NCBI GenBank assembly: GCA_030681555.1
Contig: JAUXRW010000125.1
Location: 1,730 to 65,729 of the forward strand
Reading direction: 5' to 3'
DNA from: Acidimicrobiales bacterium
GTDB taxonomy: Bacteria > Actinomycetota > Acidimicrobiia > Acidimicrobiales > VFJN01
Length of the DNA: 64,000 nt
Shown here: piece by piece, positions 7,375-51,760 of the stretch
Layout of the letters: the number at the start of each line of letters is the position of its first letter
Numbering within the stretch: position 1 is the stretch's first letter
Made by a program: the position numbers and the translations under genes
Notes under the pieces: generated by a model
Database searches by the model: none
What the model saw: only the letters and a program-made list of their open reading frames with translations
What the model was told of the DNA's origin: nothing

Positions 7375-7411
7375 AGCCCATCTTCCACCCGGTTACCTCG
7401 GGGCGCCATGA

Positions 7412-7700: not shown

Positions 7701-7715
7701 CCCCTGCGGGCCGAG

Positions 7716-11388: not shown

Positions 11389-11916
11389 TCAGGCTCGGCG
11401 ATCCGATGCAGAGCCGCCCGCCGGATGGTCGGCGGAGGTGAAAGGGGTGGCGAGGATGGTGAGCAGGCTGCGACGCAACGAGCTGAGCGATCGCTCGCCG
11501 AGCGCGGACTCCATCTTCGCGAACGCGCGCATCGCCTCGCGGACGGCAGCACGCCCCTTATCGGTGAAGCTGATGAGCTTCGCCCGCCGATCGTGCGGGT
11601 CGGCAGTGCGCACGAGGTAGCCGAGCTGCTCGAGGTCGATGACCAGCTCGGACATCGCCTGCTTGGTGATCCCCGCCTTCTCGGCGAGCTCGGTCAATCG
11701 TATGCCTTCGAAGGTGACGTGCGCCATGACGTTGTGGTGCACGACGCGGTGGTCGTCGAACCCGGCGGCGACGAGGTGACTCTGCAGCGCCTCTGCCAGG
11801 TGGCGCTCGACGAGGGTGATGAGCAGGAGCACCGGCGTGTCTTCGTCCGGATCGGGCACGGCCCCAAAGTAGTCAGGAACCTTGACTAGTGTGAGACACC
11901 ACGCGATAGTCGTCAT
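11389..11916 (-). CDS. MarR-family transcriptional regulator
   Basis: 175 aa. HTH core is LTELAEKAGITKQAMSELVIDLEQLGYLVRTADPHDRRAK. A 7-bp inverted repeat, gatagtc (11905-11911) / gactatc (11924-11930), brackets the start codon. The exact start is uncertain. Confidence 0.8.
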   Translation of the reverse strand: MTTIAWCLTLVKVPDYFGAVPDPDEDTPVLLLITLVERHLAEALQSHLVAAGFDDHRVVHHNVMAHVTFEGIRLTELAEKAGITKQAMSELVIDLEQLGYLVRTADPHDRRAKLISFTDKGRAAVREAMRAFAKMESALGERSLSSLRRSLLTILATPFTSADHPAGGSASDRRA

Positions 11917-11960
11917 GCCGCCTGACTATCTCCGTCGGGCCAGGACGAGGGAGCCGCCCC

Positions 11961-12947
11961 ATGGAGCGCCAGCCGCACGAGACGATCTGGCAGCTTGCAA
12001 CAGCAACGGTCGCGTCACGCACGCTGCACGTTGTTGCCGAGCTCGGCGTCGCCGACCACATCGACGAGGCGCCGGTGCTGTCCAAGGAGCTGGCAACGAG
12101 GTGCGGCGCCGACGCAGGCGCCCTCGACCGCGCCCTGATGCTCCTTGCCGCACACGGCGTGTTCGATCGCGTGGGCGACGCCTACGCGCACACCGATGCG
12201 TCCCGTCTGCTCCGCTCGGACCACCCCTCGTCGATGCGTGCCTTCCCTCGCATGATGGGCATGACGTCGTTCAGCACCAGCCTCGGTCATCTCGAACACT
12301 CCGTCCGGACAGGCGAGCCCGCCTTCGGCCTCGTGGAGCCGGACGGCCTGTTCGCGCACCTCCAGCGCCACGAGGACGAAGCTCGCATCTTCGACGCGTC
12401 CATGACAGCCAAGGCGGCCGGAGACACCGCCGCAATCCTCGCTGCCTACGACTTCAGCCGATTCTCGACGATCGCCGATATCGGCGGCGGACGCGGGCAC
12501 CTGCTCCGCGCCGTGCTCGAAGCTGCACCGAACACCACCGGCATCCTGTTCGAACTTCCCGCCGTGATCGACGCCGTCGACACGCCGGCGGAGAGGTTCG
12601 CGCTGCACGCGGGCGACTTCTTCAGCGACGCGCTGCCGGCGGCGGACGCCTTCATCCTGATGGAGGTCGTCCACGACTGGGACGATGACCAGGCGGCGAC
12701 CATCCTCTCGGCGGTGCGACGCGCCGCCGCTCCCGGCGCGACCGTCCTCATCATCGAAGCGGTGGCCGACGAGGAGGTCCTCGACCCCGTCGTGCGAACC
12801 CTGGACATGATCATGCTCGCCATCACCGGAGGCCGCGAGCGCACGGCGGCCGAGCTCGACCAACTGCTCGCCAGCGTCGGCTTCCGCGACACCAGGATCC
12901 TGCCGACACCCAGCCCGCTGCGGATCGTCGAGGCGGTCGCCGTCTGA
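11961..12947 (+). CDS. SAM-dependent O-methyltransferase (Methyltransf_2 type with N-terminal dimerisation domain)
   Basis: 328 aa with an ATG preceded by GAGGGAG. The SAM motif is IADIGGGRGHL, and the overall layout matches small-molecule O-methyltransferases. Confidence 0.85.
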   Translation: MERQPHETIWQLATATVASRTLHVVAELGVADHIDEAPVLSKELATRCGADAGALDRALMLLAAHGVFDRVGDAYAHTDASRLLRSDHPSSMRAFPRMMGMTSFSTSLGHLEHSVRTGEPAFGLVEPDGLFAHLQRHEDEARIFDASMTAKAAGDTAAILAAYDFSRFSTIADIGGGRGHLLRAVLEAAPNTTGILFELPAVIDAVDTPAERFALHAGDFFSDALPAADAFILMEVVHDWDDDQAATILSAVRRAAAPGATVLIIEAVADEEVLDPVVRTLDMIMLAITGGRERTAAELDQLLASVGFRDTRILPTPSPLRIVEAVAV

Positions 12948-13085
12948 ACCACGAGCAGCCCGACTTCCCGCCAGGCCTCACCATTGCCGTCGACTTGGCC
13001 GCATCGTCCCCAACGCCGGAGCAGAGGACAGTCGCCCCCACAGCGACCGGCGACCGGGGTCTCCGCTAGGCCGTGGGGCGGTCGA

Positions 13086-13565
13086 TCAGGGCGAGACGGG
13101 GGTGCCGCTTGCGTACTCGTGTGCCGCTTGGACGAGTTGGGTGACGACCGAGCGCTCGTGGTCATCCCGAGGTGCGTAGAGCATCACAGCGTTGGAGGGG
13201 ATCTCGCCACGGCGAGCGACGGGATGTTGCTCGGCCCATCCGGCTTCGACGGCGTCGGTGACCAGCTCGGGCGGGAGCATGACGTGGAGGCTCTGGTCTT
13301 CGCCGGGGTGGAGATGAGCGAACTCGGCGTCGATGAGGAACGCACCTGCAGGTGCGTCGACGGCGCGGGGCAGGCAGAGCGCGCGTGCTCCCGGAACGGA
13401 GATGAGACTGGGGCGCTCTTCGACTCCCGGTAGCGCGAAGAGGTCGGCGGCGAGACGTTCGCGTTGCTCGCTGCCTTCTGGCTGCTGGTCGAGTTGGGTG
13501 TGCGGGTTCGTTTCGGTGGTCATCGGCCGCGGGCCAGGTCGAACCGGGAGCGGGCGGGGATTCAT
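13086..13565 (-). CDS. Conserved hypothetical protein, resembles the small 'luciferase family' (DUF5519-like) actinobacterial proteins
   Basis: 159-aa ORF. The core, PGVEERPSLISVPGARAL...EFAHLHPGEDQSLHVMLP...GWAEQHP, matches my recollection of that family. The start may instead be the second Met (MTTETN). Confidence 0.55.
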   Translation of the reverse strand: MNPRPLPVRPGPRPMTTETNPHTQLDQQPEGSEQRERLAADLFALPGVEERPSLISVPGARALCLPRAVDAPAGAFLIDAEFAHLHPGEDQSLHVMLPPELVTDAVEAGWAEQHPVARRGEIPSNAVMLYAPRDDHERSVVTQLVQAAHEYASGTPVSP

Positions 13566-18606: not shown

Positions 18607-19026
18607 ATGACCGCTGCGCCACAGGACGAGGGACCGAACCCCTTCGTCATCGACATCGAGGCCGCCACCGTCGAGAACGGCACCTTCCGAACGGCGCTCT
18701 GGACCGGCGCCAACCTCCAGATGACAGTGATGGCGATCGAGCCCGGCGGCGAGATCGGGCTCGAGGTGCACGAGGACCGCGATCAGTTCCTCCGCGTCGA
18801 GAGCGGTCGTGGCCGCGTCCAGATGGGTCCGGCGGAGAACGACCTGCCGTTCGAGCGCGAGGTCGAGGACGGCTGGGCGATCCTCGTGCCCGCTGGCACC
18901 TGGCACAACGTGACGAGCATCGGCAGCGAGCCGCTCAAGGTGTACGCCCTCTACGCGCCACCGGAGCACCCGCACGGCACCGTCCATGCGTCGAAGGCCG
19001 ACGCCGACGCCGCCGAGCACCACTAG
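18607..19026 (+). CDS. Cupin-domain protein
   Basis: The start is trimmed to ATG 18607, which has GAGGAGG about 9 nt upstream. The cupin core is IEPGGEIGLEVHEDRDQFLRVESGRGRV...VPAGTWHNV. The product is 139 aa. Confidence 0.8.
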   Translation: MTAAPQDEGPNPFVIDIEAATVENGTFRTALWTGANLQMTVMAIEPGGEIGLEVHEDRDQFLRVESGRGRVQMGPAENDLPFEREVEDGWAILVPAGTWHNVTSIGSEPLKVYALYAPPEHPHGTVHASKADADAAEHH

Positions 19027-19234
19027 CGCTCCAGGCTCGGCGTCTTCCTCAAGCGGACGGCGGCATCGAGAGCTTGCGCTCGGCGCCTCGTCCGATCCGG
19101 CCGCTGGCCCGTCGTCGTCGACCCGGACGTCGATCAGGCGAGATCGGCGGGACGAGGTCGGGCACCGCCCCGTGTACTGGCCGGGGCGGACCGGGCCCAA
19201 CCCGCGGGGGCGGCGGCTCGGTAGCGTCTCGGGC

Positions 19235-37556: not shown

Positions 37557-37632
37557 GCCTGCGAAGCCGCACGAACCGGAGGTCCCGTGATGCCGACCAA
37601 GCCCAGCTGGCCCCACGCGGCGAGGCGCTGAC

Positions 37633-38481
37633 GTGGCTCGCCCCGTCTGGACGGGGTCCATCAGCTTCGGCCTCGTCAACGTGCCCGTGAAGGCCTACAC
37701 AGCGGTTCGCGACCACGACGTCCACTTCCACCAGCTCGAGAAGAGGTCGGGATCCCGAATCCGGAACCGCAAGGTCTCGGAGAAGTCGGGCAAGGAGGTC
37801 GACTCCAGTGCCATCGAAATGGGCTTCGAGGTCAGCAAGGGCAAGTATGTGACGTTCAGCTCCGAAGAGCTCGACGAGCTGCGTCCCGCCTCCACCCGGG
37901 CCATCGAGGTGTCCGACTTCGTCGCCCTGGCCGATGTCGACCCGATCTACTACGAGCGCACCTACTGGCTCGGCCCCGACGGCGACGCCGGCAAGCAGGC
38001 CTACCAGCTGCTGCTCGCGGCGATGGAGGAGCGTGAGCGCGTGGCCATCGGCACCGTGGTCATGCGCAACAAGCAGTACCTCACCGCCATCCGGCCGCTC
38101 GACGGCGCCCTGGCCATGTCGACGATGCGGTTCGCCGACGAGGTCGTGCCCCGTTCGGAGGTCGACGGGGTGCCGAACCGCCGGGCCAAGCCGGATGCCA
38201 AGGCCATGAAGCTGGCCACGCAGATCGTCGACTCGCTGGCTGCCGAGTGGGACCCGAAGCGGTACCACGACACCTACGCCGAGGAGCTGAAGAAGCGCAT
38301 CAAGGCGAAGGACCGCGGCAAGAAGGTCGTGGAGGAGCAGCCGCCCGCCGAGACCGATGCCGACGTGCTCGACCTCATGGAGGCCCTGGAGAAGAGCGTT
38401 CAGAGCGCGAAGGGGCGACGCAGCGCGGCCAAGGCGAGCCCGTCGGGCAAGAAGGCGTCGAAGGCGCGGAAGAGCGCCTAG
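37633..38481 (+). CDS. ku: Ku (NHEJ DNA end-binding protein)
   Basis: 282 aa with a GTG start. It begins ARPVWTGSISFGLVNVPVKAY and has a Lys-rich C-terminal tail. Confidence 0.92.
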   Translation: MARPVWTGSISFGLVNVPVKAYTAVRDHDVHFHQLEKRSGSRIRNRKVSEKSGKEVDSSAIEMGFEVSKGKYVTFSSEELDELRPASTRAIEVSDFVALADVDPIYYERTYWLGPDGDAGKQAYQLLLAAMEERERVAIGTVVMRNKQYLTAIRPLDGALAMSTMRFADEVVPRSEVDGVPNRRAKPDAKAMKLATQIVDSLAAEWDPKRYHDTYAEELKKRIKAKDRGKKVVEEQPPAETDADVLDLMEALEKSVQSAKGRRSAAKASPSGKKASKARKSA

Positions 38482-38490
38482 AGCGACACC

Positions 38491-40047
38491 GTGGCGTCCA
38501 CGAAGGCACGGCTCGAGCAGTACCGCTCCAAGCGCGACTTCGAGATCACGTCGGAGCCCTCCGGGAGCGGGCCACCACCGGCCAAGGGCGGTCGCCGGTT
38601 CGTCGTGCAGAAGCACCGTGCGAGCCAGCCCCACTACGACTTCCGCCTCGAGGCCGACGGTGTGCTGGTGAGCTGGGCCGTGCCGAAGGGACCCACCCTG
38701 GACCCGAAGGCGCGGCGCATGGCCGTCCACGTCGAGGACCACCCGCTGGGCTACTTCGACTTCGAGGGCGTGATCCCCGAGGGCCAGTACGGCGGCGGCG
38801 ACGTCATCGTCTGGGACTGGGGTACGTGGGAGCCGGCCGACGGCAAGGATCCGATCGCGGCCGTCGAGTCGGGTGACCTCCACTTCGATCTCCACGGCGA
38901 GAAGCTGCGCGGACGCTTCGTGCTCGTCCGTCGTGGAGCGGGCGGCGACAAGGAGCAGTGGCTGCTCCTGCACAAGGCCGACGAGCACGCCGTACCGGGC
39001 TGGGACCCGGAGGACCACCCCCGGTCGGTGAAGTCGGGACGCACCAACGACGAGGTCAAGGCCGCCCCCTCGGCGACGTGGTCGTCGCGGCGCTCCTTCG
39101 CCGCCCCCACGGCCGAGGAGCTCGAGGCTCTCGATGCCCTCGGCAAGGCGGGGGAATGGCAGCTCGGCGAGCACACGCTGCGCCTCACGAACCTCGACAA
39201 GGTGCTCTTCCCCGGGAAGGGCCGAGGTCGGCCCGTCACCAAGCGGGACCTCATCCGCCACCACGCCAAGATGGCGCCGGCCATGCTGCCGTACCTGCAC
39301 GACCGACCGGTGAACATGCACCGCTACCCGGACGGCATCGAGAAGGCGGGCTTCTGGCACAAGGCCGCACCTGACCATGCGCCGGAGTGGATCCGCCGGT
39401 GGCGGAACGTCGACGCGGATCCCGGTGAGACCAAGGTGTACGTCGTCGTCGACTCACCCGCTGCGCTGGCGTGGGCGGCCAACTTCGGTGCCCTCGAGTT
39501 GCACCCGTGGACCTCCACCGCCGATCACCAGCACCAGCCCACGTGGGCGATGATCGACGTCGACCCTGGCACCAAGAGCACGTTCGCCGACGCGCTCGTC
39601 CTGGCCCGCCTCTACCGCACGGCGCTCGAGCACCTCGGCGTGGAGGCGACGCCGAAGGTCACCGGCAAGCGCGGCATCCAGATCTGGGTGCCGGTGGCCG
39701 ACGGCTACAGGTTCGAGGACACGCGACTCTGGGTGGAGAAGGTCTCGCGGGCCATCGGGAACACAGTCCCCGAGATGGTCAGCTGGGAGTGGGAGACGGA
39801 TAAGCGCGGCGGTCTGACCCGCCTCGACTACACGCAGAACGCGATCAACAAGACGCTGGTCGCTCCCTTCAGCGCCCGCCCCGCTCTCGGGGCCCCGGTG
39901 TCGGTGCCCATCACGTGGGAGGAGCTCGACGATCCGAAGCTCCGCCCCGACCGCTGGAACATCCGCAACGTCTGCGAGCGCCTCGACACCGCCGGCGACC
40001 CGCTGGCCCCGCTCATCGGCCAGCAGCAGCGTCTGCCCAACCTCTGA
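38491..40047 (+). CDS. ligD: LigD-like protein with 3'-phosphoesterase and polymerase domains but no ligase domain
   Basis: 518 aa with a GTG start 9 nt after ku. The PE domain shows FVVQKHRASQPHYDFRLE...VHVEDHPLGYFDFEG. The polymerase domain shows LTNLDKVLFP...MIDVDP...KVTGKRGIQIWVPV. There is no adenylation (KxDG) region. Confidence 0.88.
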   Translation: MASTKARLEQYRSKRDFEITSEPSGSGPPPAKGGRRFVVQKHRASQPHYDFRLEADGVLVSWAVPKGPTLDPKARRMAVHVEDHPLGYFDFEGVIPEGQYGGGDVIVWDWGTWEPADGKDPIAAVESGDLHFDLHGEKLRGRFVLVRRGAGGDKEQWLLLHKADEHAVPGWDPEDHPRSVKSGRTNDEVKAAPSATWSSRRSFAAPTAEELEALDALGKAGEWQLGEHTLRLTNLDKVLFPGKGRGRPVTKRDLIRHHAKMAPAMLPYLHDRPVNMHRYPDGIEKAGFWHKAAPDHAPEWIRRWRNVDADPGETKVYVVVDSPAALAWAANFGALELHPWTSTADHQHQPTWAMIDVDPGTKSTFADALVLARLYRTALEHLGVEATPKVTGKRGIQIWVPVADGYRFEDTRLWVEKVSRAIGNTVPEMVSWEWETDKRGGLTRLDYTQNAINKTLVAPFSARPALGAPVSVPITWEELDDPKLRPDRWNIRNVCERLDTAGDPLAPLIGQQQRLPNL

Positions 40048-41266: not shown

Positions 41267-43351
41267 TCAGTACGCGAGGGCCCGGCGAGCGGCCTCCGCG
41301 ATGTCGGCGACCTGCGGGAGCACAGCGTCCTCGAGCGTCGGCTCGTAAGCGACGTGGCAGTCGAGGGCCCCCACCCGGCCGACGGGAGCATCGAGGTGCT
41401 CGAAGCACGCCTCGGCGATCCACGCCGCCACCTCGCCGCCGAAGCCGGCCGTACGGATGTCCTCGTGGACCACCAGCACCCGGCTGGTGCGCTGCACGGA
41501 CTCGGCCACGAGGTCGCTGTCCCACGGGATGAGGCACCGCAGGTCGATGATCTCGATCGACGCTCCCTGCTCCTCCGCGAGGAGCAGGGAGGCCCTCCGG
41601 GAGCGCTCGACCGTGGCGCCGTAGGTGACGATCGTCAGGTCGGTGCCCGCTTGGTCGATCGTGCCCTTGCCGAGGGGCAGCACCCAGCCCTCCTCCGGGA
41701 ACGGGTCGCGCGTGTAGGGCTGGCGCAGGAGGTGCTTGTGCTCGAGGAACAGCACCGGGTCGTCGCACCGGAAGGCGGCCCGCAGCATGCCCACCGCGTC
41801 CCGGGCGCGGGACGGGTACATGACGACCAGGCCGGGGATGTGGGCGAAGATCGACTCGCCGCTCTGGCTGTGCCAGATGGCGCCGCCGGCCAGGTAGCCG
41901 CCGATCGGCACCCGCAGCACCATGGGGCACGAGTAGGCCCCGTTCGATCGCCAGCGGGTAGTGGCCGCCTCGGTCTTGATCTGCTGCATGGCGGTCCAGA
42001 TGTAGTCGAAGAACTGGATCTCCGGGCACGGCTTGAGACCCCGGATGGCCTGACCCACGGCGCGCCCGACGATGTTGGCCTCGGCCAGTGGCGTATTGAA
42101 GCAGCGGGCCACCCCGAAGTCGCGCTGGAGGCCGAGGGTGGTTCCGAAGACGCCGCCCTTGCCCTCGAGCTGCCCGATGAGCTCCACCGGCGCGTCGGCC
42201 ACGTCCTCACCGAAGACCCGGATCCGCTCGTCGGCCGCCATCGCCTCGTGCAGGGTGCGGCGGATGGCCTCGCCGAAGGCCACGACCTCCCCCTCCGTGC
42301 TCGGGGCGCCGGGATCGTCGATCGCCGGGAGGGCGGTGACGTTGCTGAGGAGGGTGGTCGGCGACGGGCGGGCGGCAGCCATCGCCGCCTTCGCCGCCGC
42401 GGCCACCTCGGCCTGCCCGTCGGCCCGCAGCTGCGCCACGTCGTCGGCCGTCGCCCAACCCCGGGCGATGACCGCCCGTTCGAGGAGCGTGATCGGGTCG
42501 TGGTCGCGCTCGTCCTGGAGCTCGCTGTCCGGCCGGTACTTCGCCTGCGTGTCGGCGGCCGAGTGGGAGTACGGGCGGGTGACGGTGGCGTGGATGAGGC
42601 CCGGACCCTCGGCCGCTCGCACCCGGGCCACGGCCACCTGGCCGGCCTCCCGGGCGGCGAACCAGTCGCGCCCGTCCACCTTCGTGACCGCGAGGCCGCG
42701 GAAGCCCGCCACCATCTCGGAGATGGGGGCTGGCGACTGGTCCTCCGACCGCACCGAGATGGCGTAGCCGTTGTCGGCCACGAGGAAGAGCACCGGGAGG
42801 TGGAGACGGCAGGCGGTGTTGAGGCTCTCCCAGAACTCCCCTTCGCTGGTGGCGCCCTCGCCCAGCGACACGTAGGTCAGCTCGTCGCCGTGCGCCTCCG
42901 CGCCGGGCAGCGACCGGCCCTGGATGTACCGCGTGGCCTCGGCGCAGCCCACCGCCGGCAGGCACTGCGATCCGGTGGCCGACGTCTGCGACACCACGTG
43001 CAGGTCGCGATTCCCCCAGTGGCAGGGCATCTGCCGCCCGCCCGACGCCGGGTCGTCCGCCGAGCCCACCGCCTGCAGCAGCATCTCGTAGGGCGTGACG
43101 CCGAGGGCCAGCATCAGGGCCCGGTCGCGGTAGTAGGGGAAGAACCAGTCGTAGCCGGCTCGCAGCGAGCGGGCGAGGCCGAGCAGCAGCGCCTCGTGCC
43201 CGGCGCCGCTGATCTGGAAGAACACGCGGCTCTGCTTCTGCAACGCGATCTCGCGGTCGTCGAGGGCACGGGACACGTGCGCGGTCCGCAGGTCGGCCAG
43301 GGCCTCCGTGGCGAGGGCGGACTCGGACGGGGCATCGGGGTGGTGGGCCAC
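41267..43351 (-). CDS. Thiamine-diphosphate-dependent 2-oxoacid dehydrogenase E1 component, fused alpha/beta
   Basis: The start is trimmed to GTG 43351, upstream of which the divergent PAS gene begins. The product is 694 aa. The alpha part shows YRDRALMLALG and GEGATSEGEFWE. The beta part shows VFGEDVADA and PIGGYLAGGAIWHSQS. Confidence 0.85.
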   Translation of the reverse strand: MAHHPDAPSESALATEALADLRTAHVSRALDDREIALQKQSRVFFQISGAGHEALLLGLARSLRAGYDWFFPYYRDRALMLALGVTPYEMLLQAVGSADDPASGGRQMPCHWGNRDLHVVSQTSATGSQCLPAVGCAEATRYIQGRSLPGAEAHGDELTYVSLGEGATSEGEFWESLNTACRLHLPVLFLVADNGYAISVRSEDQSPAPISEMVAGFRGLAVTKVDGRDWFAAREAGQVAVARVRAAEGPGLIHATVTRPYSHSAADTQAKYRPDSELQDERDHDPITLLERAVIARGWATADDVAQLRADGQAEVAAAAKAAMAAARPSPTTLLSNVTALPAIDDPGAPSTEGEVVAFGEAIRRTLHEAMAADERIRVFGEDVADAPVELIGQLEGKGGVFGTTLGLQRDFGVARCFNTPLAEANIVGRAVGQAIRGLKPCPEIQFFDYIWTAMQQIKTEAATTRWRSNGAYSCPMVLRVPIGGYLAGGAIWHSQSGESIFAHIPGLVVMYPSRARDAVGMLRAAFRCDDPVLFLEHKHLLRQPYTRDPFPEEGWVLPLGKGTIDQAGTDLTIVTYGATVERSRRASLLLAEEQGASIEIIDLRCLIPWDSDLVAESVQRTSRVLVVHEDIRTAGFGGEVAAWIAEACFEHLDAPVGRVGALDCHVAYEPTLEDAVLPQVADIAEAARRALAY

Positions 43352-43429
43352 GGTCGCACCGCCGACGCTACCGCTCGTCCTGCCGCCATCGGCGGCGTCA
43401 CCCGGGCGCCGTGGACGTAGCCTGCCTGC

Positions 43430-43843
43430 GTGACCCCCGAACCTCCGGGGGGCGGGCCCCGCAGCCTTCCCCTCATCCTCGCTCGGGAGCTGGCCGCCAA
43501 CTTGGCCACCCCCATGTTCCTCATCGATGCCGAGGGGATGCTGGCGTACTGCAACGACGCCGCCGAGCAGATCCTGGGTCGCTCGTTCGGCGAGATCGAC
43601 GCTCGCACGGCCGGCGAGCTCGGCGACCTGCTCAAGCTCGCCGACCTCGACGGCAAGCCCGTGCGACGGCGTGACTCGCCTCCCGGCGTCGCCCTGCTCG
43701 AGCGCTGCCCTGCGCATTGCGAGATGCTCATCACCGCGCTCGACGGCCGCCAGCGCCGCGTCGAGGTGACGGCGTACCCGCTGTTCGGGAAGGCCGACGA
43801 CATGCACGGGGTGCTGACGGTGTTCTGGGAGGCCCGGGCGTGA
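43430..43843 (+). CDS. PAS-domain protein
   Basis: 137 aa with a GTG start. The PAS core is PMFLIDAEGMLAYCNDAAEQILGRSFGEI...RRVEVTAYPLF. Confidence 0.75.
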   Translation: MTPEPPGGGPRSLPLILARELAANLATPMFLIDAEGMLAYCNDAAEQILGRSFGEIDARTAGELGDLLKLADLDGKPVRRRDSPPGVALLERCPAHCEMLITALDGRQRRVEVTAYPLFGKADDMHGVLTVFWEARA

Positions 43844-44724
43844 GGGTGCGGGTGTGGGGGTGCCGCGGGTCGCTGGCCACCCCCGGACCGGACACCGTGC
43901 GCTACGGCGGCAACACGTCGTGCGTCGAGGTGCGCAGCAGCACCGGCGACGCCCTGGTGCTCGACGCCGGCACCGGCATGCGCCCCCTTGGCCTCGCGCT
44001 GGAGGCAGAGGGCGTGCAGCGCATCCACGTGCTGCTCAGCCACCTGCACCTCGACCACCTCCAAGGGCTGGGGTTCTTCGCCCCGCTGTTCGACCCCGGC
44101 GTGGAGGTCCACATCTGGGGTCCGGCGTCGCCCGTGCAGTCGCTCTCCGACCGGATCGCCACCTACCTCTCGCCCCCGCTGTTCCCGGTGCGGCTGGCCG
44201 ACGTGCCGTCGAAGCTCCAGTTTCACGACGCACCCGAGGACGAGGTGCAGATCGGCTCCGTTCGGGTGCGGGCGTCGCTCGTCACGCACCAGGGCCCCAC
44301 CGTCGGGTATCGCATCGAGGAGGACGGTCGGTCGGTCGTCTACCTGCCCGACCACGAGCCGAGCCTCGGGGTCGACGTCGCGGACCAGCCGGTCGAGTGG
44401 ATCAGCGGCCACCACCTCGCCCACCGCGCCGACGTGCTCCTCCACGACGCGCAGTACGGCGACGACGAGTACCCGCGCCACGTCGGCTGGGGCCATTCGG
44501 CGGTCGGGCACGTGGTGGCGTTCGCGCGCAAGGCCGAGGTCGATCGCCTCGTCCTGTTCCACCACGATCCCGGCCACAGCGACGAGCAGCTCGAGGACCT
44601 CGTCGAGGAGGCGCGCCTGCTGTGGGGCGCCGACCACCAGCGCGTCTGCTGCGCGTGGGACGGCATGAACATCGAGCTGTCCCCCGACCACATCTCCCTG
44701 CCCGCCCCACCGCTACCGGCGTAG
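43840..44724 (+). CDS. MBL-fold metallo-hydrolase
   Basis: 294 aa. The GTG start overlaps the PAS stop (GTGA). It has the HxHxDH motif LLSHLHLDHLQGLG. Confidence 0.85.
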   Translation: MRVRVWGCRGSLATPGPDTVRYGGNTSCVEVRSSTGDALVLDAGTGMRPLGLALEAEGVQRIHVLLSHLHLDHLQGLGFFAPLFDPGVEVHIWGPASPVQSLSDRIATYLSPPLFPVRLADVPSKLQFHDAPEDEVQIGSVRVRASLVTHQGPTVGYRIEEDGRSVVYLPDHEPSLGVDVADQPVEWISGHHLAHRADVLLHDAQYGDDEYPRHVGWGHSAVGHVVAFARKAEVDRLVLFHHDPGHSDEQLEDLVEEARLLWGADHQRVCCAWDGMNIELSPDHISLPAPPLPA

Positions 44725-44897
44725 CGGGCTCCTGCAGAACCTGGCGGCGTGCGCCTCGCTGGCCAGGGTCTGCGGGTCGATGGTGTCACCCCCAGGGCGC
44801 GGCGGCGACCAGCGGTCCCCGGCGAACTCGCGGCTGCTACCGGACGGATCTGTCCTGCATGCGTCGGCGACGTCGACGTGCCTGGGCCGAGACGCGC

Positions 44898-44929
44898 CGC
44901 AGGCTGGCCGCCGAAGCGACCAGCCTGCG
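44898..44929. terminator. Perfect 10-bp hairpin between convergent genes
   Basis: cgcaggctgg (44898-44907) and ccagcctgcg (44920-44929) flank a 12-nt loop. The hairpin lies between the MBL gene end (44724) and the secreted-repeat gene end (44957). Confidence 0.45.
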
Positions 44930-44956
44930 GGTACAGCTCAGTTGTGACTGGCTAGA

Positions 44957-46366
44957 TCACGAGGGGGCGGGGAGCACCCCGAGCAGATCGGCCACGAGGT
45001 GCGTGGCGTGCTGCGTGAAGAAGCAGATCTCGCTCTCGTTGCCGACCTGGGTGATGACCAGGTTCGCTCGCGTCTGGCCGGCCACCAGGTTCAAGTTTGA
45101 CGTCTCCGGGACCGGGGTGGACGCGCTCTGGCACGGGTAGACAGTCACGTAGGTCGGGGTGACCTCCGTGGCCGTGCCGGTAACGTTGAGGACGACCGCT
45201 TGTCCGGGGGAGGCCTTGCCTTCCAGGTTGAGCACGAGTCGGCCGTTGGCCACCGGCTTGGGGGTGTTGGCCGGCGTGTTCACGATCTGGCCCCCGGTCG
45301 GGATCGGTGCACCGGTCGGCCGGGTTTCCAGCACGCGGAGTGGGTCGTCCAACGGGGCGTAGCTCGCTCCGTCAGGGAAGTACCCGAACCGGTCAGCGAT
45401 GAGGTGCGTCGAGTTCGATGTGTAGAAGCACACGTCGCCGACGCCGATGCCGTCGTTGACGTTCTCTGCGGCCACGGCGGCATCCGCCGACTTCGTGATC
45501 ACGAGGTTGGCGGCGATGACGCCGTTCTCGAGGTTCAGGCTCGAGGCGAGCGGCGGATCGGGCTCGATGTTGCCGTTGTTGCCGTTGATGTTGTCGTGGC
45601 AGTCCCAGATGGTGACGTAGCCGCCCTCGGACGCAACGCCAGCAACGTTGAGCACGATGGCATCAGCGATGCCGCCGACGGTGAAGTGGTGCACCTGGTT
45701 GGCCGTCGGCTTGCCGCCGGCATAGCCGGTCTGCACGACGCCGCCGCCGGAGGGACGGGTGTCGAGGTAGCGATGCGGCGCCTCGTCGGCCACATAATCG
45801 CCGCTCCCCGTCCGGAAGTAGCCGGTGACGTCGACCAGGAGGTGGGTGGCGTTGCGGCTGTAGATGCAGAGGTGGTCGATGAATTCCTCGGCCACCGCTC
45901 CGCTGGCGCCGACCTTTGAAATCACGGTGTTCGGCCGGATGTCGTTGCTGGTGAGATTGACGTTGGACACGTTGGCCGGCGGATCGGGTTCCAGGGTGTC
46001 ATCGCCAAGATTCATGTCGGCGCAGTCCCACACGGTGAGGTAACCGTCGGTGCCGGTCGACTCGACCCCGGTGACCGTGGCCACGGCGACAGGCGCAGTG
46101 CTGGGCACGGGGGTGCCCGTGCCGCGAACCTTCACCTTGGTGATGGAGTTCGCGCCCGCCTTGACGGCGTTGGCCGGCGTGGTCTCGAACGGCGCGCCAC
46201 GGGTCTCGAGTACGCGCGTCGGCGTCACGGGGACGAAGTCGTCTGCGGACGTTGGGTCAGCTTGCGCTGTCGGCGTGAGGGCGAGCGACGCGCCCAGGAG
46301 GGTCAGCGTCAGCAGGCCGAAGAGGCCCCGCCTCTGTCGTCGTGAACCGAACGGCAGTCGTTGCAT
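44957..46366 (-). CDS. Secreted protein made of three tandem ~140-aa repeats of an uncharacterised Cys-containing module
   Basis: The start is trimmed to ATG 46366, which gives the signal peptide MQRLPFGSRRQRRGLFGLLTLTLLGASLALTPTAQA. The repeats lie at about 45812-46237, 45374-45796 and 44975-45361. They share R(V/Y)L(E/D)TR, NV(T/A)G, Y(L/V)T(V/I)(W/Y)xC, S(N/S)xNL, N(L/T)VI, xC(I/F)(Y/F) and THL(L/I/V)xD. Confidence 0.85.
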   Translation of the reverse strand: MQRLPFGSRRQRRGLFGLLTLTLLGASLALTPTAQADPTSADDFVPVTPTRVLETRGAPFETTPANAVKAGANSITKVKVRGTGTPVPSTAPVAVATVTGVESTGTDGYLTVWDCADMNLGDDTLEPDPPANVSNVNLTSNDIRPNTVISKVGASGAVAEEFIDHLCIYSRNATHLLVDVTGYFRTGSGDYVADEAPHRYLDTRPSGGGVVQTGYAGGKPTANQVHHFTVGGIADAIVLNVAGVASEGGYVTIWDCHDNINGNNGNIEPDPPLASSLNLENGVIAANLVITKSADAAVAAENVNDGIGVGDVCFYTSNSTHLIADRFGYFPDGASYAPLDDPLRVLETRPTGAPIPTGGQIVNTPANTPKPVANGRLVLNLEGKASPGQAVVLNVTGTATEVTPTYVTVYPCQSASTPVPETSNLNLVAGQTRANLVITQVGNESEICFFTQHATHLVADLLGVLPAPS

Positions 46367-46571
46367 AGGAAAAGTGACCTTTCGTAGAGGTGGGCAGACA
46401 TCCCACGAGGCCCCGCAAGCCGGGAACCTGTCTACCAGACGTCTCAGGACAGGGACAGGGTTCCGACACATCCGACATTTCTCCGAAAATGGGCACAGAC
46501 AGTGCGCAGCGATGCGGCGAGCCCTCCGGCCGCACGTCCTCCGCAGCTCCCCACTCGCCGCGGCCCAGCCC

Positions 46572-46644
46572 GTCGGCGAACCCGCGACGCCACGTACACA
46601 AAAGTGTGTGCTCGGTGTCGTTGGTTCGATCCCCCGAGCCGACC
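46572..46644 (+). other. tRNA-like relic (not a functional tRNA)
   Basis: GGTTCGATCCC (46623-46633) matches a canonical T-loop. gtcggcg (46572-46578) can pair at 6 of 7 positions with agccgac (46637-46643) at tRNA-like 73-nt spacing. The D, anticodon and T stems do not form. Confidence 0.2.
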
Positions 46645-46818
46645 TCGCGACGGTACGTGCACACTTCTGTCAACCGGGCGTCGCGAGTTCGGCGGGGAGG
46701 CCAGCAGGGGCTGCCCTCGCCGCGCCCTTGACCTGCGTCCGGGCCAGCTCGTCCTGGCCAGCGAGGCACGCTGCGCCCCAGCAGCCAGCCCAGAGCCAGG
46801 TCCTCTCCGACAGGATCG

Positions 46819-48156
46819 TCAGGGCTGGGGTTGGAGCTGCTCCATCTGGGCCTCGAGCTCGACGATGCGGGCCTTGAGGCGCTTGATGAGATCGGCGGCC
46901 TGGGTGAGCTTGATGTTGGCCTCGTCGTGGTCGAGGTAGCGCTGCAGCATGGCCTCGCTGGCCGTGAGCCGCCGTTGCATGCGGACGCACCGGTCGTAGA
47001 GGTCGACGTACAGGTCGGAGAAGCGCGGTCCGAGGAGCACGGCCTCGGGCTCGCCGAGGGAGTCCATGCGATCGGCGTGCGGCTCGTGGCCCAGGACGGC
47101 GCGGGCGGTGGCCCGGAGGTAGGCGATCCCGTTGCGCTCGTCGGGCTCGAGGTGGGCCCCCTCGGCCCACTCGTTCCACGCGTTGATGAAGACCACGCCG
47201 CCGCGCGAGCGAGCGCGCTCGTACACCTGGTGCAGCCAGCGCTCGTAGGCCTCGGGCGTGTTGTTGATGACGGCGAGCGAGCGGCCGTCGCCCCGGCGCG
47301 GGGTGTTGTCCCAACCGGGGAACACGCACTCGTGCCGGGTCCACTCGGGCTCGGGCTGGTCGAGGAACGTGCGGACGACGTCGGCGTAGTCGTAGACGGC
47401 GTTGCCGGGTGCGGCGTCGGTCGTGTCGGTCGTCTGCACCAGCTCGCCGAGGCCGTGGGGCAGGAACTGCGCGGCGGCGTCGCAGTGGTGGTCGGCGGGG
47501 TCGTCGAAGCGCCCGTGGGTATCGAACTTCACGATGTACGGATCGCCGAGCCCGGCGTCGATAGACACCTGGCGGAGCCGGGCGATGAACCCCTCGGCGT
47601 CGGGCAGCGACTGCACCCGGTAGACGAGGAACAGCGGGCGCCCGTCGATCCGCACGTAGCGGTGGTCGCGGAACGCCTCCACGAGGTAGAGGACGTGCTC
47701 CTCCCGCTCGTCGACGTTGTAGGTCTGCTTGAGCAGGATCTCGTGCTCGCCCGCGTCCCAGGCGCGCGTCCAGTTCTCGTTGGCCCAGCAGAGGCAGAAG
47801 GGGAAGTCGGGCGACCCGCTGCGGAGCACCTCGTCGAACACCCGGTCGAGCACGCGCCGACCACCGAACCAGTAGTGGTAGTAGCAGAAGGCGTCGATGC
47901 CGTGAGCCCGCGCCAGCGCGGCCTGCTGCTCCCGGACCTCGGGGACGCGGAGGTCGTAGAACCCGAGGTCGCCGGGCAGGTGCGGCTGGTAGTGCCCCTC
48001 GAAAAGGGGCTTCGCCTTCACCACGTTGTTCCACTCCGTGAAGCCCTTGCCCCACCACGCATCGTTCTCCGGGACCGGGTGGAACTGCGGCAGGTAGAAG
48101 GAGATGACCTTCGGGTGATCGGGGGCGGGCGCCTCGTACTCGTGCTCGTCGGTCAC
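46819..48156 (-). CDS. WbsX-family (glycosyltransferase/glycoside-hydrolase-like) polysaccharide biosynthesis protein with C-terminal coiled coil
   Basis: The start is trimmed to GTG 48156, giving 445 aa. It contains ISFYLPQFHPVPENDAWWGKGFTEWNNV, CWANENWTRAWDG-like and NAWNEWAEG blocks. The tail is LIKRLKARIVELEAQMEQLQ. Confidence 0.8.
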   Translation of the reverse strand: MTDEHEYEAPAPDHPKVISFYLPQFHPVPENDAWWGKGFTEWNNVVKAKPLFEGHYQPHLPGDLGFYDLRVPEVREQQAALARAHGIDAFCYYHYWFGGRRVLDRVFDEVLRSGSPDFPFCLCWANENWTRAWDAGEHEILLKQTYNVDEREEHVLYLVEAFRDHRYVRIDGRPLFLVYRVQSLPDAEGFIARLRQVSIDAGLGDPYIVKFDTHGRFDDPADHHCDAAAQFLPHGLGELVQTTDTTDAAPGNAVYDYADVVRTFLDQPEPEWTRHECVFPGWDNTPRRGDGRSLAVINNTPEAYERWLHQVYERARSRGGVVFINAWNEWAEGAHLEPDERNGIAYLRATARAVLGHEPHADRMDSLGEPEAVLLGPRFSDLYVDLYDRCVRMQRRLTASEAMLQRYLDHDEANIKLTQAADLIKRLKARIVELEAQMEQLQPQP

Positions 48157-48166
48157 GCCGGATCGC

Positions 48167-48946
48167 TCACAGGATCGGTCGGAACCGCAGGCCGCGGTTG
48201 AGGTAGGCCGTGGCGAGCCGGAACGGGGTGGGCAGCGACCGGTCCCCACGGACCACCTCGACCATGTCGCGGTCGACGGTGATCTCGGCGATGGCGCTGC
48301 GGTCGGTGCCGGCCACCATCACGAGCTCGACGATGAGGTTGGTGAGGGCCGGGCGATCGGCCCAGTAGCCCCCGGCGTACTGCCAGAGATCCTCGTCCAT
48401 GTGGGCCCAGTTCCAGTCCTCGATGATGTACCGGCCACCGGGCCGGAGCCGGGGAAAGGTGACCTCGAAGGTGGACCGGGTCTCGCGGTACAGGTGGGAG
48501 GCGTCGTCCACGATGAGGTCGAGCGGACGATCCTCGAGGTGCTCCTCGAGGATCCCGGCCAGCGCGATCTCGTCGGCTTGGTCGACGCCGTAGAACCGCT
48601 TCAGCTGCCCGGACGCCGCGGTGGCGGCGAACTCGTCGAGCGCGGTCACCGGCTCGGCCTCGAGCTCCACGGCGAGGTGGATCTCCGGCCGCAGCAGCGC
48701 GTTCAGGAACGCCGTGCTGCCGCCCTTGTAGAGGCCGACCTCGAAGATCGTGGAGATCTCCTCAGGAGGCAGGCGGTCGACCAGCCAGTCGACCATCTCC
48801 TTGCGCTTCACGAGCATGAACTCGCGGCTCGTCGCCGGGTGCACCGTGTACACCTCCGGGTCGACGGAGAGCAGGAACCGCGTGCCGCCGACCTCCAGCA
48901 CGTCGTCGCTCAGCCAGTGCAACCCAGCGTGGGTGTCGATGCTCAC
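48167..48946 (-). CDS. Class I SAM-dependent methyltransferase (CmcI / sugar O-methyltransferase-like)
   Basis: 259 aa. The GTG start overlaps the upstream stop (GTGA). It contains IFEVGLYKGGSTAFL, DLIVDDASH and PGGRYIIEDW. Confidence 0.75.
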   Translation of the reverse strand: MSIDTHAGLHWLSDDVLEVGGTRFLLSVDPEVYTVHPATSREFMLVKRKEMVDWLVDRLPPEEISTIFEVGLYKGGSTAFLNALLRPEIHLAVELEAEPVTALDEFAATAASGQLKRFYGVDQADEIALAGILEEHLEDRPLDLIVDDASHLYRETRSTFEVTFPRLRPGGRYIIEDWNWAHMDEDLWQYAGGYWADRPALTNLIVELVMVAGTDRSAIAEITVDRDMVEVVRGDRSLPTPFRLATAYLNRGLRFRPIL

Positions 48947-49887
48947 CGGGCGCTGCGGAGGGCGCGGTACAGCGAGCGCAGGCCGGCCGTCGCCCGGAAC
49001 GTCTTCGTGCGGTAGACCGCGTCGAGCTCCTGCCGCGCCTGGACGGCGTCGGACAGCTGGGCCTCCATGGCCGCCACCTTCTCCTCCAGCGTCGCGAAGT
49101 CGACCTCCAACGTGGCCCGCTGTGAGCGCTCCTGGCGGAGCTGCTCATCGATGTCGGCGAAGCGGCGCACCTGCGCCTCCTGCTCTGCGGTGCCGTCGAC
49201 GGGCACCGCGCGGAGGACGAACTGGTAGCTCTGCGCCTCGGGATCCTCGAGGGCGGCACGGAGGATCTCGGAAGGCACGTCGGACGCGTTCACCTCGAGC
49301 TCGGTCTCGAACGGCGGCCGCATCACCCGGTGCAGCTCCACCAGGTGGAAGCCGGCGTCCTCGACGAGCTGGGTGATCGACGCCCGCGTGAAGAAGCGCA
49401 GGTGGGTGCGATCGAGCAGCCCGTAGTCCCGGTACTCGAAGCGACCGGCGAGCAACGCCAGCTTCACGTCGACGTGGGCTACGTTCGGCAGGGAGATCAC
49501 GGCGTAGCCGCCGGGGCGCAGCGCTTCGCGGCACTCCTGGAGCACGCCCGCCGGGTCGATGAGGTGCTCGAGCACGTCGCCGGCGTAGACGACGTCGAAC
49601 TCGCGCCCGGCCACGGCCTTGGTGACCGCGCCGGGGTCGAAGAGGCTGGTGACCACGACGTCGTCGGCTATCTCGGCGGCGGCCTCGGCGGCGCGGGCGT
49701 CGTACTCGATACCGACCACCCGGCAGCCCTGCTCGACGAGGGCCTGGGTGACGTGCCCGGCCGCGCAGCCGAGCTCCAGGACGTCCTTGTCCCGACCGAT
49801 CATGGCCAGGGAGAAGGCGTGGGCGTTGTTCGGAGCGGTGCGATCGACGGGGGCCCAGTACTTGAAGCTGTCTGTGTTCGCAGCCAT
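48943..49887 (-). CDS. Class I SAM-dependent methyltransferase with C-terminal coiled coil
   Basis: The start is trimmed to ATG 49887, giving 314 aa. It contains VLELGCAAGHVTQAL and DVVYAGDVLEHL. The tail is LEVDFATLEEKVAAMEAQLSDAVQARQELDAVYRTKTFRATAGLRSLY. Confidence 0.85.
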   Translation of the reverse strand: MAANTDSFKYWAPVDRTAPNNAHAFSLAMIGRDKDVLELGCAAGHVTQALVEQGCRVVGIEYDARAAEAAAEIADDVVVTSLFDPGAVTKAVAGREFDVVYAGDVLEHLIDPAGVLQECREALRPGGYAVISLPNVAHVDVKLALLAGRFEYRDYGLLDRTHLRFFTRASITQLVEDAGFHLVELHRVMRPPFETELEVNASDVPSEILRAALEDPEAQSYQFVLRAVPVDGTAEQEAQVRRFADIDEQLRQERSQRATLEVDFATLEEKVAAMEAQLSDAVQARQELDAVYRTKTFRATAGLRSLYRALRSAR

Positions 49888-50002
49888 GACCCGAAGACGG
49901 TAGTCCACCGGCCTCCGAGGGCGATATGTCGGGAACTCGGTTCCGCTTTGCGGTCGCGTTGCGCGGTGTCCTGGTGCCACCCTGCACCGGTACTGTTCGA
50001 AG

Positions 50003-51760
50003 ATGGCACGCACCCGGAGGCGGTGGCGGCGGACCTTCGCGGTCGCCCTGCTGGGGACGGTGCTCGGCATCACCCTGGCTCCCGCCATGGTCGCTTCCCA
50101 GGAGGCACCCGTAGCCCCGCCCCCCGAGGTCGACGGCCCCGTCCCCACCGCCGCCGGGCTGCGCGGGGGTCCGATCACCTCGGTGCGCCGGCCGCTCGCC
50201 GAGCACGGCTACGTGGAGCAGGAGTTCTTCCTCGCCGGCACCGCCAACGCATACGAGGCCGCAGGCTTGTGGGGCGAGGACGGGCGTTGGGGCACCACCG
50301 TCCGCGCCTCGTCGCCCTACGCCACCCGGCTCCTGGTGCGCCGCCCGATCGATCCGTCCCGCTTCAACGGCACGGTCATCGTCAGCTGGCTCAACGTCGA
50401 CGGCGGCTTCGAGAACGACGTCGAGTGGGTCCAGGCCGGCGACGAGCTCATGCGGGAGGGCGCCGCCTACGTGGGGGTGTCGGCGCAGTCGCTCGGCGTC
50501 AGCGGCCTGCTGGGCGCCGTCGTCTGGGACACCACGCGCTACGCCCGGCTCGGCCTCACCGACGATGCCCTCTCCTACGACGTCTTCACCCACGCCGGCG
50601 CAGTCCTGAAGGATCCCGGCGAGGTCGACCCGCTCGAGGGCCTCCCCGCGGAGCGCCGCCTGATCGCCACCGGCCAGTCGCAGTCGGCGCAGCGGCTCGT
50701 CACCTACATGAACGCCTTTCACCCATCGGCCGACGTGTACGACGGGTTCCTGCTCCTGTCACGGTTCGCGGGGGCGGCGCCGCTCGGTGCCGCCCCGATG
50801 ACGTACCCGGATCCGGACGCGCCCTCCCGGCCCGATCCGCTCACCGCGCTGTTGGCCGGCCCGCCCCGGGCGCAGCTCCGGGACGACCTCGACGTCCCGG
50901 TGTTCGTCCTCCTCACCGAGACCGAGGCGTCCCAGAACGACGCTGTCCGCCGCCCCGACTCCGAGCGGTACCGGACGTGGGAGGTGGCGGGCAGCGCGCA
51001 CCTCGACACGACGCTCCTCGGTGCCCAGCGCTCGTTGCTGCGGCGCGAGTTCCCGCTGGCCATCGTCGACCCGATGGCCAGCTGCGCATCGCCCAACGCC
51101 TTCCCCACCGCCTACGCGGTGCGAGCGGCCCTGCGCGCCATGGGCGCCTGGGTGGCTGACGGTGACGCGCCGCCGTCCGCGCCACGCCTCACCCGGGACG
51201 CCGCAGGGGCGATCGTGCGGGACCCCGACGGCAACGCCCTCGGCGGCGTGCGCCTCCCGGAGATCGAGGTGCCGACCGCCTCGCACAGCGGCGAGTCGAG
51301 CGTCGACGGGATGTGCAGCCTGGTCGGCTCCACGGTGCCCTTCGACGCCGCCGAGCTCGCAGCCCGCTACCCCCATCCGCAGGCCTACATCGATGCCGTG
51401 GCCGAGGCGTCGGCCTCCGCCGTCGAGGCCGGTCACATGGTGCCCGAGGACGTCGCCGTGGCCGCCGCCACCGCCACCCGTTCGGTCGGGGGCACGGCCA
51501 GCCCCGCCGGCGCCGCTGCTCCCGAGAGCGGGGCCGCCACCCCCGGCGCGGCCGGCCCCGATGCCGTCGCCACGCCTGACCGAGGAGCGGCGGCGGCGGC
51601 ACCCGATGCGCCCGACCGGGCGGAGGCGAAGCGTTCCGATCCCGGGTGGATGGCCACCACCGGACGCGACCTCATCACCCCCGTGCTGATCGGTTTCCTC
51701 CTGCTGCTCAACGGCCGGGTCGTGCTGACGATCGCCAACCAGCGCCGCTCCGGTCGCTGA
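50003..51760 (+). CDS. Secreted alpha/beta-hydrolase-like protein with low-complexity linker and C-terminal membrane anchor
   Basis: 585 aa. It has the signal peptide MARTRRRWRRTFAVALLGTVLGITLAPAMVA and a GQSQSAQ nucleophile-elbow-like motif. An Ala/Pro-rich linker precedes the terminal sequence MATTGRDLITPVLIGFLLLLNG...NQRRSGR. Confidence 0.8.
   Translation: MARTRRRWRRTFAVALLGTVLGITLAPAMVASQEAPVAPPPEVDGPVPTAAGLRGGPITSVRRPLAEHGYVEQEFFLAGTANAYEAAGLWGEDGRWGTTVRASSPYATRLLVRRPIDPSRFNGTVIVSWLNVDGGFENDVEWVQAGDELMREGAAYVGVSAQSLGVSGLLGAVVWDTTRYARLGLTDDALSYDVFTHAGAVLKDPGEVDPLEGLPAERRLIATGQSQSAQRLVTYMNAFHPSADVYDGFLLLSRFAGAAPLGAAPMTYPDPDAPSRPDPLTALLAGPPRAQLRDDLDVPVFVLLTETEASQNDAVRRPDSERYRTWEVAGSAHLDTTLLGAQRSLLRREFPLAIVDPMASCASPNAFPTAYAVRAALRAMGAWVADGDAPPSAPRLTRDAAGAIVRDPDGNALGGVRLPEIEVPTASHSGESSVDGMCSLVGSTVPFDAAELAARYPHPQAYIDAVAEASASAVEAGHMVPEDVAVAAATATRSVGGTASPAGAAAPESGAATPGAAGPDAVATPDRGAAAAAPDAPDRAEAKRSDPGWMATTGRDLITPVLIGFLLLLNGRVVLTIANQRRSGR

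Follow-up and report, generated by a model that had tools for sequence, protein, structure and literature searches.

A triplicated, predicted jelly-roll module in exoproteins of Acidimicrobiia and its possible binding of cell-wall glycopolymer

INTRODUCTION

In a stretch of 64,000 nucleotides from an Acidimicrobiales bacterium (assembly GCA_030681555.1, contig JAUXRW010000125.1, positions 1,730 to 65,729 of the forward strand; this whole stretch is the window referred to below), one minus-strand gene that starts at position 46366 encodes a secreted protein made of three tandem copies of a module that matches no family in the databases searched, and it lies next to genes for glycan modification. 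What would such a protein do at the cell surface, and why is it built in threes? Acidimicrobiia abound in freshwater, marine, soil, and wastewater communities, yet hardly any study has addressed their cell envelope. A preliminary description of the locus, made from the DNA alone, recognized the signal peptide and the repeats and proposed either a surface glycoprotein or a glycan-binding protein.

Sequence comparisons indicate that the three copies are an obligate, family-wide unit and that it is portable, being joined in relatives to enzymes of many kinds; the preliminary description had missed both features, as well as the predicted folding of the copies into a single compact triple jelly-roll body. 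Our favored reading, which we hold tentatively and with somewhat less than even confidence, is that the protein, as a pseudo-trimer, binds a glycopolymer of the cell wall non-covalently.

RESULTS

A large family absent from the databases

No Pfam family matched the protein at an E value of ≤10, NCBIfam and PHROGs returned nothing real, and the Protein Data Bank (PDB) gave no match by single sequence or by profiles; matches of 15 bits to CgeC and of 15 bits to YbhB in the sequence and profile searches were dismissed as chance-level. Annotation of the homologues with a newer Pfam release marks partner domains only and none over the repeats, and literature searches on the motif and on bacterial “triple jelly rolls” turned up no account of the family. 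A profile of all three repeats was run against 1.84 billion representative proteins; its matches, clustered at 50% identity, number 11,420 at E values of ≤1e-3 and 6,475 at E values of ≤1e-10. Judged from source names and from a scan of GTDB species genomes, the family is almost entirely confined to Acidimicrobiia (Ilumatobacteraceae, Acidimicrobiales), with a few representatives in Actinomycetes, e.g., Jatrophihabitans. The suspicion that the module lacks an assigned family and is widespread in unannotated actinobacterial exoproteins was well founded on both counts. One family member lies on a contig binned as Pseudomonadales (L072, JAPYTQ010000054.1), which is more likely to reflect a binning error than a diderm that carries the module.

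A family of over 11,000 clusters at 50% identity that keeps strictly to three copies and has no Pfam, NCBIfam, or PDB entry amounts to a large annotation blind spot, and it merits a database entry even with no function assigned to it.

Three copies as the unit

The module has the signature P-x-R-x-L-(D/E)-T-R ... LNVT ... (Y/F)xT(V)xPC ... P..SNLN ... N.V ... C ... D..GY, whose columns are conserved at 86 to 100% across the family. All three modules of the window protein carry it and score 182 to 221 bits against the module hidden Markov model (HMM). They are 38 to 41% identical to one another, and BLASTP between module pairs gives E values of 6e-19, 7e-17, and 5e-19, in agreement with the three repeats delimited in the preliminary description. 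The motifs listed there were likewise all recovered, namely R(V/Y)L(E/D)TR, NV(T/A)G, a YxTxxxC block, SxxNL, NxVI, xC(I/F)(Y/F), and THLxxD, as were the GYF endings of repeats 1 and 2, the LLGVL ending of repeat 3, and the restriction of an EPDPP-containing insert to repeats 1 and 2, where it follows the first cysteine. Module 3, which has no insert, is the nearest to the family consensus; the acidic loop of module 1 is conserved in relatives P0002 to P0004 and not in canonical family members.

The count is nearly always three. Profile searches gave exactly three matched stretches in 141 of the 150 best representatives, and reanalysis with the HMM found three modules in 242 of 247 family proteins, both sets having been ranked by total score. 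A less biased check is a six-frame scan of 84 loci, 79 of which had been found by a single 8-residue module pattern: exactly three modules were present in 79 of the 101 uninterrupted open reading frames (ORFs) that carry modules, and most ORFs with other counts run into a contig end or a frameshift. Positional orthology among the modules is moderate, the best match in another protein falling at the same position in 145 to 175 of 242 cases, and modules within a single protein often share about 64% identity. The window protein belongs to a divergent subfamily (P0002 to P0016); its three modules, only 38 to 41% identical to one another as stated above, have clear positional orthologues.

Predicted structure

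AlphaFold2, supplied with an alignment of 101 sequences, returned a confident model with a mean predicted local distance difference test (pLDDT) score of 88.8, a predicted template modeling (pTM) score of 0.87, and eight beta-strands per module; prediction from the single sequence was uninformative (pLDDT of 41). Because a pTM of 0.87 is high for a three-domain chain, the modules are likely to be held in a fixed, compact arrangement.

Foldseek comparison with the PDB gave its best E value (2.6e-5) for a “triple jelly roll” protein of Sulfolobus turreted icosahedral virus (STIV; 4ind_A), but with template modeling (TM) scores of only 0.18/0.21, and the STIV homologue Q6Q0L3, among predicted viral structures, reached 0.17/0.19. 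The single-chain APRIL-BAFF-BAFF trimer of the TNF family (4zch_B) matched with a probability of 1.00, TM scores of 0.38/0.41, and a root mean square deviation of 10.5 Å. Matches to single domains, from Vip3, Cry, CBM22, and GH101 accessory domains, had query-normalized TM scores of 0.12 to 0.21. Among predicted viral structures, picornavirus P1 polyproteins, which contain three jelly rolls, and uncharacterized giant-virus and phage proteins matched over the whole chain at 0.32 to 0.42 (the matches include A0A3G5A5X5, A0A1X9VNK7_2, and A0A6J5RA88), a range reached only by assemblies of three jelly rolls. Every TM score is below 0.45, and the protein has no close structural relative in these comparisons. 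From the model and these matches, we infer that the protein probably consists of three jelly-roll-type sandwiches arranged around a pseudo-threefold axis.

Each repeat had been described as carrying two cysteines at equivalent positions, and six are indeed present in equivalent columns. Among 726 family modules, both cysteines occur in 693, neither in 9, and the second alone in 24; by these counts, the pair is strongly conserved yet not obligatorily coupled. In the model, the first cysteine is placed after the fourth strand and the second within the seventh. The fourth and seventh strands of a canonical jelly roll (E and H) are adjacent in one sheet, so that a disulfide between the two cysteines of each module is geometrically plausible. 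At six positions a polar residue (Arg at two, Asn at three, and Asp at one) is shared by 96 to 100% of modules. According to the model and the alignment, the conserved N-x-T of LNVT is located inside a beta-strand of every module throughout the family; it is probably structural for this reason, and we rejected it as a site of N-glycosylation.

A portable module of unrelated exoproteins

In 173 proteins the triple unit forms the C terminus; 34 have it at the N terminus, immediately behind the signal peptide, 32 consist of the unit alone, and 3 have it at an internal position. Its partners in relatives include S8 peptidases, GH5 cellulase, GDSL lipases, SpoIID, a thermolysin-type domain, Peptidase_M15_4 together with PG_binding_1, CAP, and glucose/sorbosone dehydrogenase (GSDH). 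It is also joined to propellers (RCC1, NHL, Kelch, and PD40) and to PKD, HYR, Big, fn3, cadherin-type, CotH, LTD, and DUF5650 domains. Among 59 diverse representatives, about 1 has a glycoside hydrolase (GH) as its partner (GH5 occurs in P0027, P0039, and P0052), and this spectrum of partners points away from substrate targeting. An LPXTG-like signal is present in 2 of 247 family proteins. Several genomes contain at least three family loci, as counted with one narrow 8-residue pattern, and the enzyme-fused paralogues are scattered in unrelated genomic neighborhoods. We rejected a cleaved C-terminal sorting signal, of the kind represented by the C-terminal domain of the type IX secretion system (T9SS-CTD), since the unit is about 400 residues long, also occurs N-terminally or alone, and belongs to monoderm hosts.

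Start codon and export

The region contains a single long minus-strand ORF, spanning 44957 to 46471. Within it, we take the ATG at 46366 as the start codon, as the preliminary description had done, because the ribosome-binding site GAAAGG (ACGAAAGG) is located 11 nucleotides (nt) 5′ of it and because about 140 nt of upstream sequence, together with the ATG itself, can be aligned with the orthologous loci L083 and L081. The public gene model (P0001; Q8K58_12980, a hypothetical protein of 423 residues from Acidimicrobiales bacterium) begins instead at Val47 (GTG), leaving out positions 46228 to 46366 (−), and therefore has no signal peptide. The N terminus conserved in P0002 and the aligned upstream region both support the longer form, and the start of the public model needs to be moved 46 codons upstream.

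The signal peptide reads, in order, MQRLPFGSRRQRRG, LFGLLTLTLLGASLAL, and TPTAQA↓D, with an RRQRR n-region, a hydrophobic core of 16 residues, and a cleavage-type AQA↓D site. These parts, and the conservation of the N terminus in P0002 (68% identical) and also in P0005, P0006, P0008, and P0009, are good indications that the protein is exported, as first proposed. The model has low pLDDT in this region and a helix at residues 17 to 28. A clear signal was present in 144 of 246 relatives by a crude hydrophobicity test, many of the others being truncated proteins. The mature protein is acidic, with an isoelectric point of about 4.5. A twin-arginine-like motif, S/T-R-R-R-R, is conserved in the n-region of the subfamily (SRRQRRGLF in the window protein; also in P0005, P0006, P0008, and P0009), and this paired-arginine-rich n-region makes export by the twin-arginine translocation (Tat) route, rather than the Sec route, possible. 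A Tat route would bear on whether the cysteine pairs can oxidize before export.

A conserved glycan locus

The gene adjoins glycan-modification genes, as originally observed, and this arrangement, consisting of WbsX and two methyltransferases, is conserved in the stand-alone subfamily to which the gene belongs. L083 (P0002, 68% identity) and L081/L082 (P0003, 49%) have the same order as the window, namely Methyltransf_23, Methyltransf_24, WbsX, and triple-module protein, and L001 (P0004, 47%) has Methyltransf_24, WbsX, and the triple-module protein; the contig of L084 (P0007, 46%) starts so near the gene that any cassette would fall outside it. After the gene, L081, L082, and L001 each have a second triple-unit paralogue and then GT4 and GT2 glycosyltransferases (GTs), DUF2304, a fused double GT4, Wzm (ABC2_membrane), Wzt (ABC_tran plus Wzt_C), and further GTs, and L084 has the same downstream genes up to Wzm, where its contig ends. 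By gene content, these four neighborhoods constitute a classical ABC-transporter-dependent polysaccharide locus, and a Wzm/Wzt glycan-export locus surrounds the gene in four of the five relatives' loci. This synteny is not family-wide, as the enzyme-fused paralogues lie elsewhere.

The second paralogue lies immediately downstream of the first at 11878 to 13485 (+) in L001 and at 6108 to 7787 (+) in L081 (where it is P0012); the copy in L001 is split over three reading frames and represents either a pseudogene or long-read assembly errors. The WbsX protein and the Methyltransf_23 protein both end, from a reading of their sequences, in heptad-rich tails that look like coiled coils (...LKARIVELEAQMEQLQ and ...ATLEEKVAAMEAQLSDAVQARQELD), which we take to be reminiscent of the WbdD-type chain-terminating enzymes of ABC-transporter-dependent glycan pathways.

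Upstream region and other features of the window

The features of the locus are collected in Table 1. The unusually long non-coding region reported upstream of the gene is present, at 452 nt from the WbsX stop codon, but it is not a general feature, as the corresponding gaps in orthologues measure 26 to 145 nt. Its proximal part, of about 140 nt, is conserved with L083. An element, ACGTCTGGTA(G/A)ACAG, located about 75 nt before the start (at about 46435 to 46450 [−] in the window), is common to the window and L083 (at about 4018 to 4033) and holds the short palindrome GTCT-ggt-AGAC; on these sequence features, it may be a promoter or operator. The leader contains no sigma-70 consensus, promoter and terminator scans found nothing, and an Rfam scan of 44500 to 47200 returned nothing. 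The distal part of the gap, which is missing from the shorter intergenic regions of the orthologous loci, contains two imperfect inverted repeats, one at 46574 to 46608/46660 to 46694 (35-nt arms, 80% complementarity) and the other at 46631 to 46652/46679 to 46700 (22-nt arms, 82%). They could end the WbsX operon as a terminator-like hairpin, or they could belong to an inserted element.

Table 1. Coordinates of the triple-module gene, its parts, and the conserved neighboring genes in the window
Feature	Position	Strand	Remarks
Coding sequence, 469 aa plus stop	44957..46366	−	Signal peptide and three modules, no other domain
Signal peptide, residues 1-36, MQRLPFGSRRQRRGLFGLLTLTLLGASLALTPTAQA↓D	46259..46366	−	Read from sequence
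Module 1, residues 44-185	45812..46237	−	Eight predicted beta-strands; Cys115, Cys167
Acidic loop after first Cys of module 1 (ADMNLGDDTLEPDPPA)	45974..46021	−	Subfamily-specific
Module 2, residues 191-331	45374..45796	−	Eight predicted beta-strands; Cys256, Cys313
D/N/G-rich loop after first Cys of module 2 (HDNINGNNGNIEPDPPL)	45548..45598	−	Subfamily-specific; pLDDT about 73
Module 3, residues 336-466	44969..45361	−	Eight predicted beta-strands; Cys412, Cys448
Conserved promoter-proximal leader	46367..46510	−	Alignment with L083; ACGTCTGGTAGACAG about 75 nt 5′ of ATG
Glyco_tran_WbsX gene (PF14307, E value 1.8e-131)	46819..48249	−	Upstream neighbor; conserved syntenic partner
Methyltransf_24 gene	48167..48946	−	Conserved syntenic partner
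Methyltransf_23 gene	48943..50178	−	Conserved syntenic partner in L081, L082, L083

Downstream of the gene, the window holds a metallo-beta-lactamase-fold gene, a PAS gene, and a fused E1 dehydrogenase. The last of these is an 846-residue ORF at 41267 to 43807 (−), whose translation reads as an apparent fusion of the alpha and beta parts of a 2-oxoacid dehydrogenase E1; the long ORFs that overlap it in the remaining frames of either strand are high-GC artifacts. Elsewhere in the window (37591 to 40047 [+] and 18914 to 20188 [+]) are genes for Ku followed by LigD (phosphoesterase plus primase-polymerase) and, 18 kb away, for a second, stand-alone LigD primase-polymerase. These are components of non-homologous end joining, with the primase-polymerase duplicated.

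DISCUSSION

A binder of wall glycopolymer and its competitors

We favor a binder of wall glycopolymer because the protein is exported, because its triple repeat is obligate and predicted to form one compact body, and because the unit has many unrelated extracellular enzyme partners, peptidoglycan-acting ones included; a covalent anchoring signal is essentially absent, genomes hold multiple paralogues, and a stand-alone member sits in a wall-polysaccharide locus. In the mechanism that we envisage, the pseudo-trimer would bind a cell-wall glycopolymer non-covalently. The likely ligand would be the polysaccharide made and capped by the products of the two adjacent methyltransferase genes and WbsX and, judging from the orthologous loci, exported by Wzm/Wzt. 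Binding would keep the protein on the surface of the monoderm cell and, in paralogues, would keep the fused enzymes there as well, and the stand-alone form in the window would be a dedicated wall-polymer-binding protein, either lectin-like or a scaffold. Slightly more speculative is the extension of this scheme to the whole class, in which the triple jelly-roll unit would be a general non-covalent surface-display anchor of Acidimicrobiia that recognizes a methyl-capped, Wzm/Wzt-exported wall polysaccharide, with the stand-alone protein as its dedicated polymer-binding or scaffold member. If this were true, the family would define the surface proteome of the class (proteases, glycosidases, lipases, and propeller proteins) and could offer a possible display tag for Acidimicrobiia.

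Several observations weigh against wall binding. The evidence for pseudo-threefold packing is the pTM together with whole-chain TM scores, none of which reaches 0.45. The high identity among modules of the same protein (about 64%) indicates concerted evolution and not fixed, non-interchangeable positions such as those of CWB2. In a survey of IMG/VR and GenBank phages, the module was not found in endolysins or receptor-binding proteins, where its presence would have been independent support for binding to the wall. Within the window, the three-gene cassette alone adjoins the gene and the GT and Wzm/Wzt genes do not; no GT or ABC genes were found elsewhere among the scanned ORFs of the 64 kb. 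Finally, the glycan-locus synteny fits equally well with the protein as the acceptor of the glycan.

The last point leads to the alternative that survives best, an unlikely one in our estimation, in which the protein is an S-layer-like surface glycoprotein that accepts the glycan of the neighboring locus and the triple jelly roll is its structural or lattice-forming body. The conserved synteny with an ABC-transporter-type glycan locus, the stand-alone architecture with no enzyme domain, and an acidic composition rich in Thr, Ala, Val, and Gly are all compatible with this role, and jelly-roll pseudo-trimers tile naturally, as the viral capsid matches illustrate. The S-layer glycan (slg) clusters of Geobacillus and Paenibacillus combine Wzm/Wzt with capping methyltransferases near the S-layer structural gene. 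However, the loci of 15 to 20 kb showed no gene resembling an O-antigen ligase or an oligosaccharyltransferase, Ser/Thr/Pro-rich linker tracts are absent, and the sole conserved N-x-T, set within a beta-strand of every module, looks structural, while the fusion of the unit to dozens of unrelated, scattered enzymes is a better fit to a targeting module. Of the two roles offered in the preliminary description, glycan binding is the one that we favor, and that of glycoprotein is the less probable.

Binding might also be directed outward, the unit being a carbohydrate-binding module (CBM) or lectin for environmental polymers (plant, algal, or fungal glycans) or, as an adhesin, for other cells instead of the cell's own wall. 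The beta-sandwich modules, with their highly conserved polar Arg, Asn, and Asp residues and their weak Foldseek matches to CBM22 tandems, GH101, and Vip3/Cry accessory domains, would allow this, as would the GH5 partners noted above. We consider this slightly less probable than the glycoprotein alternative: GHs are rare among the partners, where proteases, lipases, propellers, and peptidoglycan-acting domains dominate, the subfamily of the window is tied to a locus for glycan biosynthesis and not for degradation, and the resemblance to CBM structures is weak (E values of about 2e-3 or worse, TM scores of 0.16 to 0.22). Least probable of all is a protein-protein module, serving in oligomerization, as a scaffold, or as a receptor-like head like those of TNF and C1q, with no glycan ligand and a coincidental or regulatory glycan neighborhood, for although the best whole-chain structural match is the TNF-family single-chain trimer 4zch_B and family members adhere very strictly to three copies, the sequence is unrelated to the TNF and C1q families, TM scores are below 0.5, and glycan-gene synteny across relatives that have diverged to 45 to 68% identity argues against coincidence.

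Comparison with known systems

The CBMs (e.g., the CBM22 tandem, PDB accession number 4xup) are, like the modules described here, beta-sandwich accessory modules on secreted enzymes. They differ in that the partners here are mostly not GHs and in that strict triplication and compact packing are atypical of CBMs; the Foldseek matches to CBM22 are weak (E values of 2e-3 to 5e-3 at the TM scores just given), and no Pfam CBM family matched at an E value of ≤10. The triple jelly rolls of the TNF family (4zch_B), of STIV (4ind_A), and of giant viruses and phages share with the predicted structure three 8-stranded beta-sandwiches in one compact body, and the short linkers between modules of the window protein fit neighboring N and C termini of this kind. 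They are cytokines or capsid proteins, whereas the unit described here belongs to bacterial exoproteins, and the resemblance, with TM scores below 0.5 and 7 to 10% sequence identity, involves no sequence-family relationship: neither TNF (PF00229) nor C1q (PF00386) matched in Pfam, and the PDB gave no sequence or profile match.

The closest parallels in proposed role are the three-copy SLH and CWB2 units of Firmicutes, whose folds are unrelated to the one predicted here, so that the analogy is functional only. The CWB2 repeats of Clostridioides difficile, of which three in tandem are required for wall anchoring, bind the polysaccharide PSII; the core genes adjoin the proposed PSII locus and others lie elsewhere (PMC4973711). 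Like the Acidimicrobiia unit, CWB2 defines a large paralogous family with variable functional domains and with members both beside and away from a glycan locus. It differs in fold and in phylum, its repeats are positionally non-interchangeable, in contrast to the often closely similar modules of single proteins here, and CWB2 (PF04122) gave no Pfam match at an E value of ≤10.

The SLH domains of Bacillus and Paenibacillus also come in three tandem copies, C-terminal or directly after the signal peptide, and trimers of SLH bind a modified terminal residue of the secondary cell-wall polymer (PMC8942822). Like the unit described here, for which the packing is a prediction, they form one pseudo-threefold body that is carried by many functionally unrelated exoproteins (PMC8942822; PMC4973711). 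Both have a conserved Arg-containing motif, which is TRAE in SLH and (D/E)TR here. SLH (PF00395) gave no Pfam match at an E value of ≤10 and has no sequence relationship to the window protein. Its repeats are alpha-helical and of about 55 residues, whereas the modules here are of about 130 residues and, in the predicted model, all-beta; the ligand modification in SLH is pyruvate, whereas the neighboring genes here encode methyltransferases. If our reading is correct, the Acidimicrobiia unit would be a third, convergent case in which three repeats build a pseudo-trimer that binds a polymer of the cell wall.

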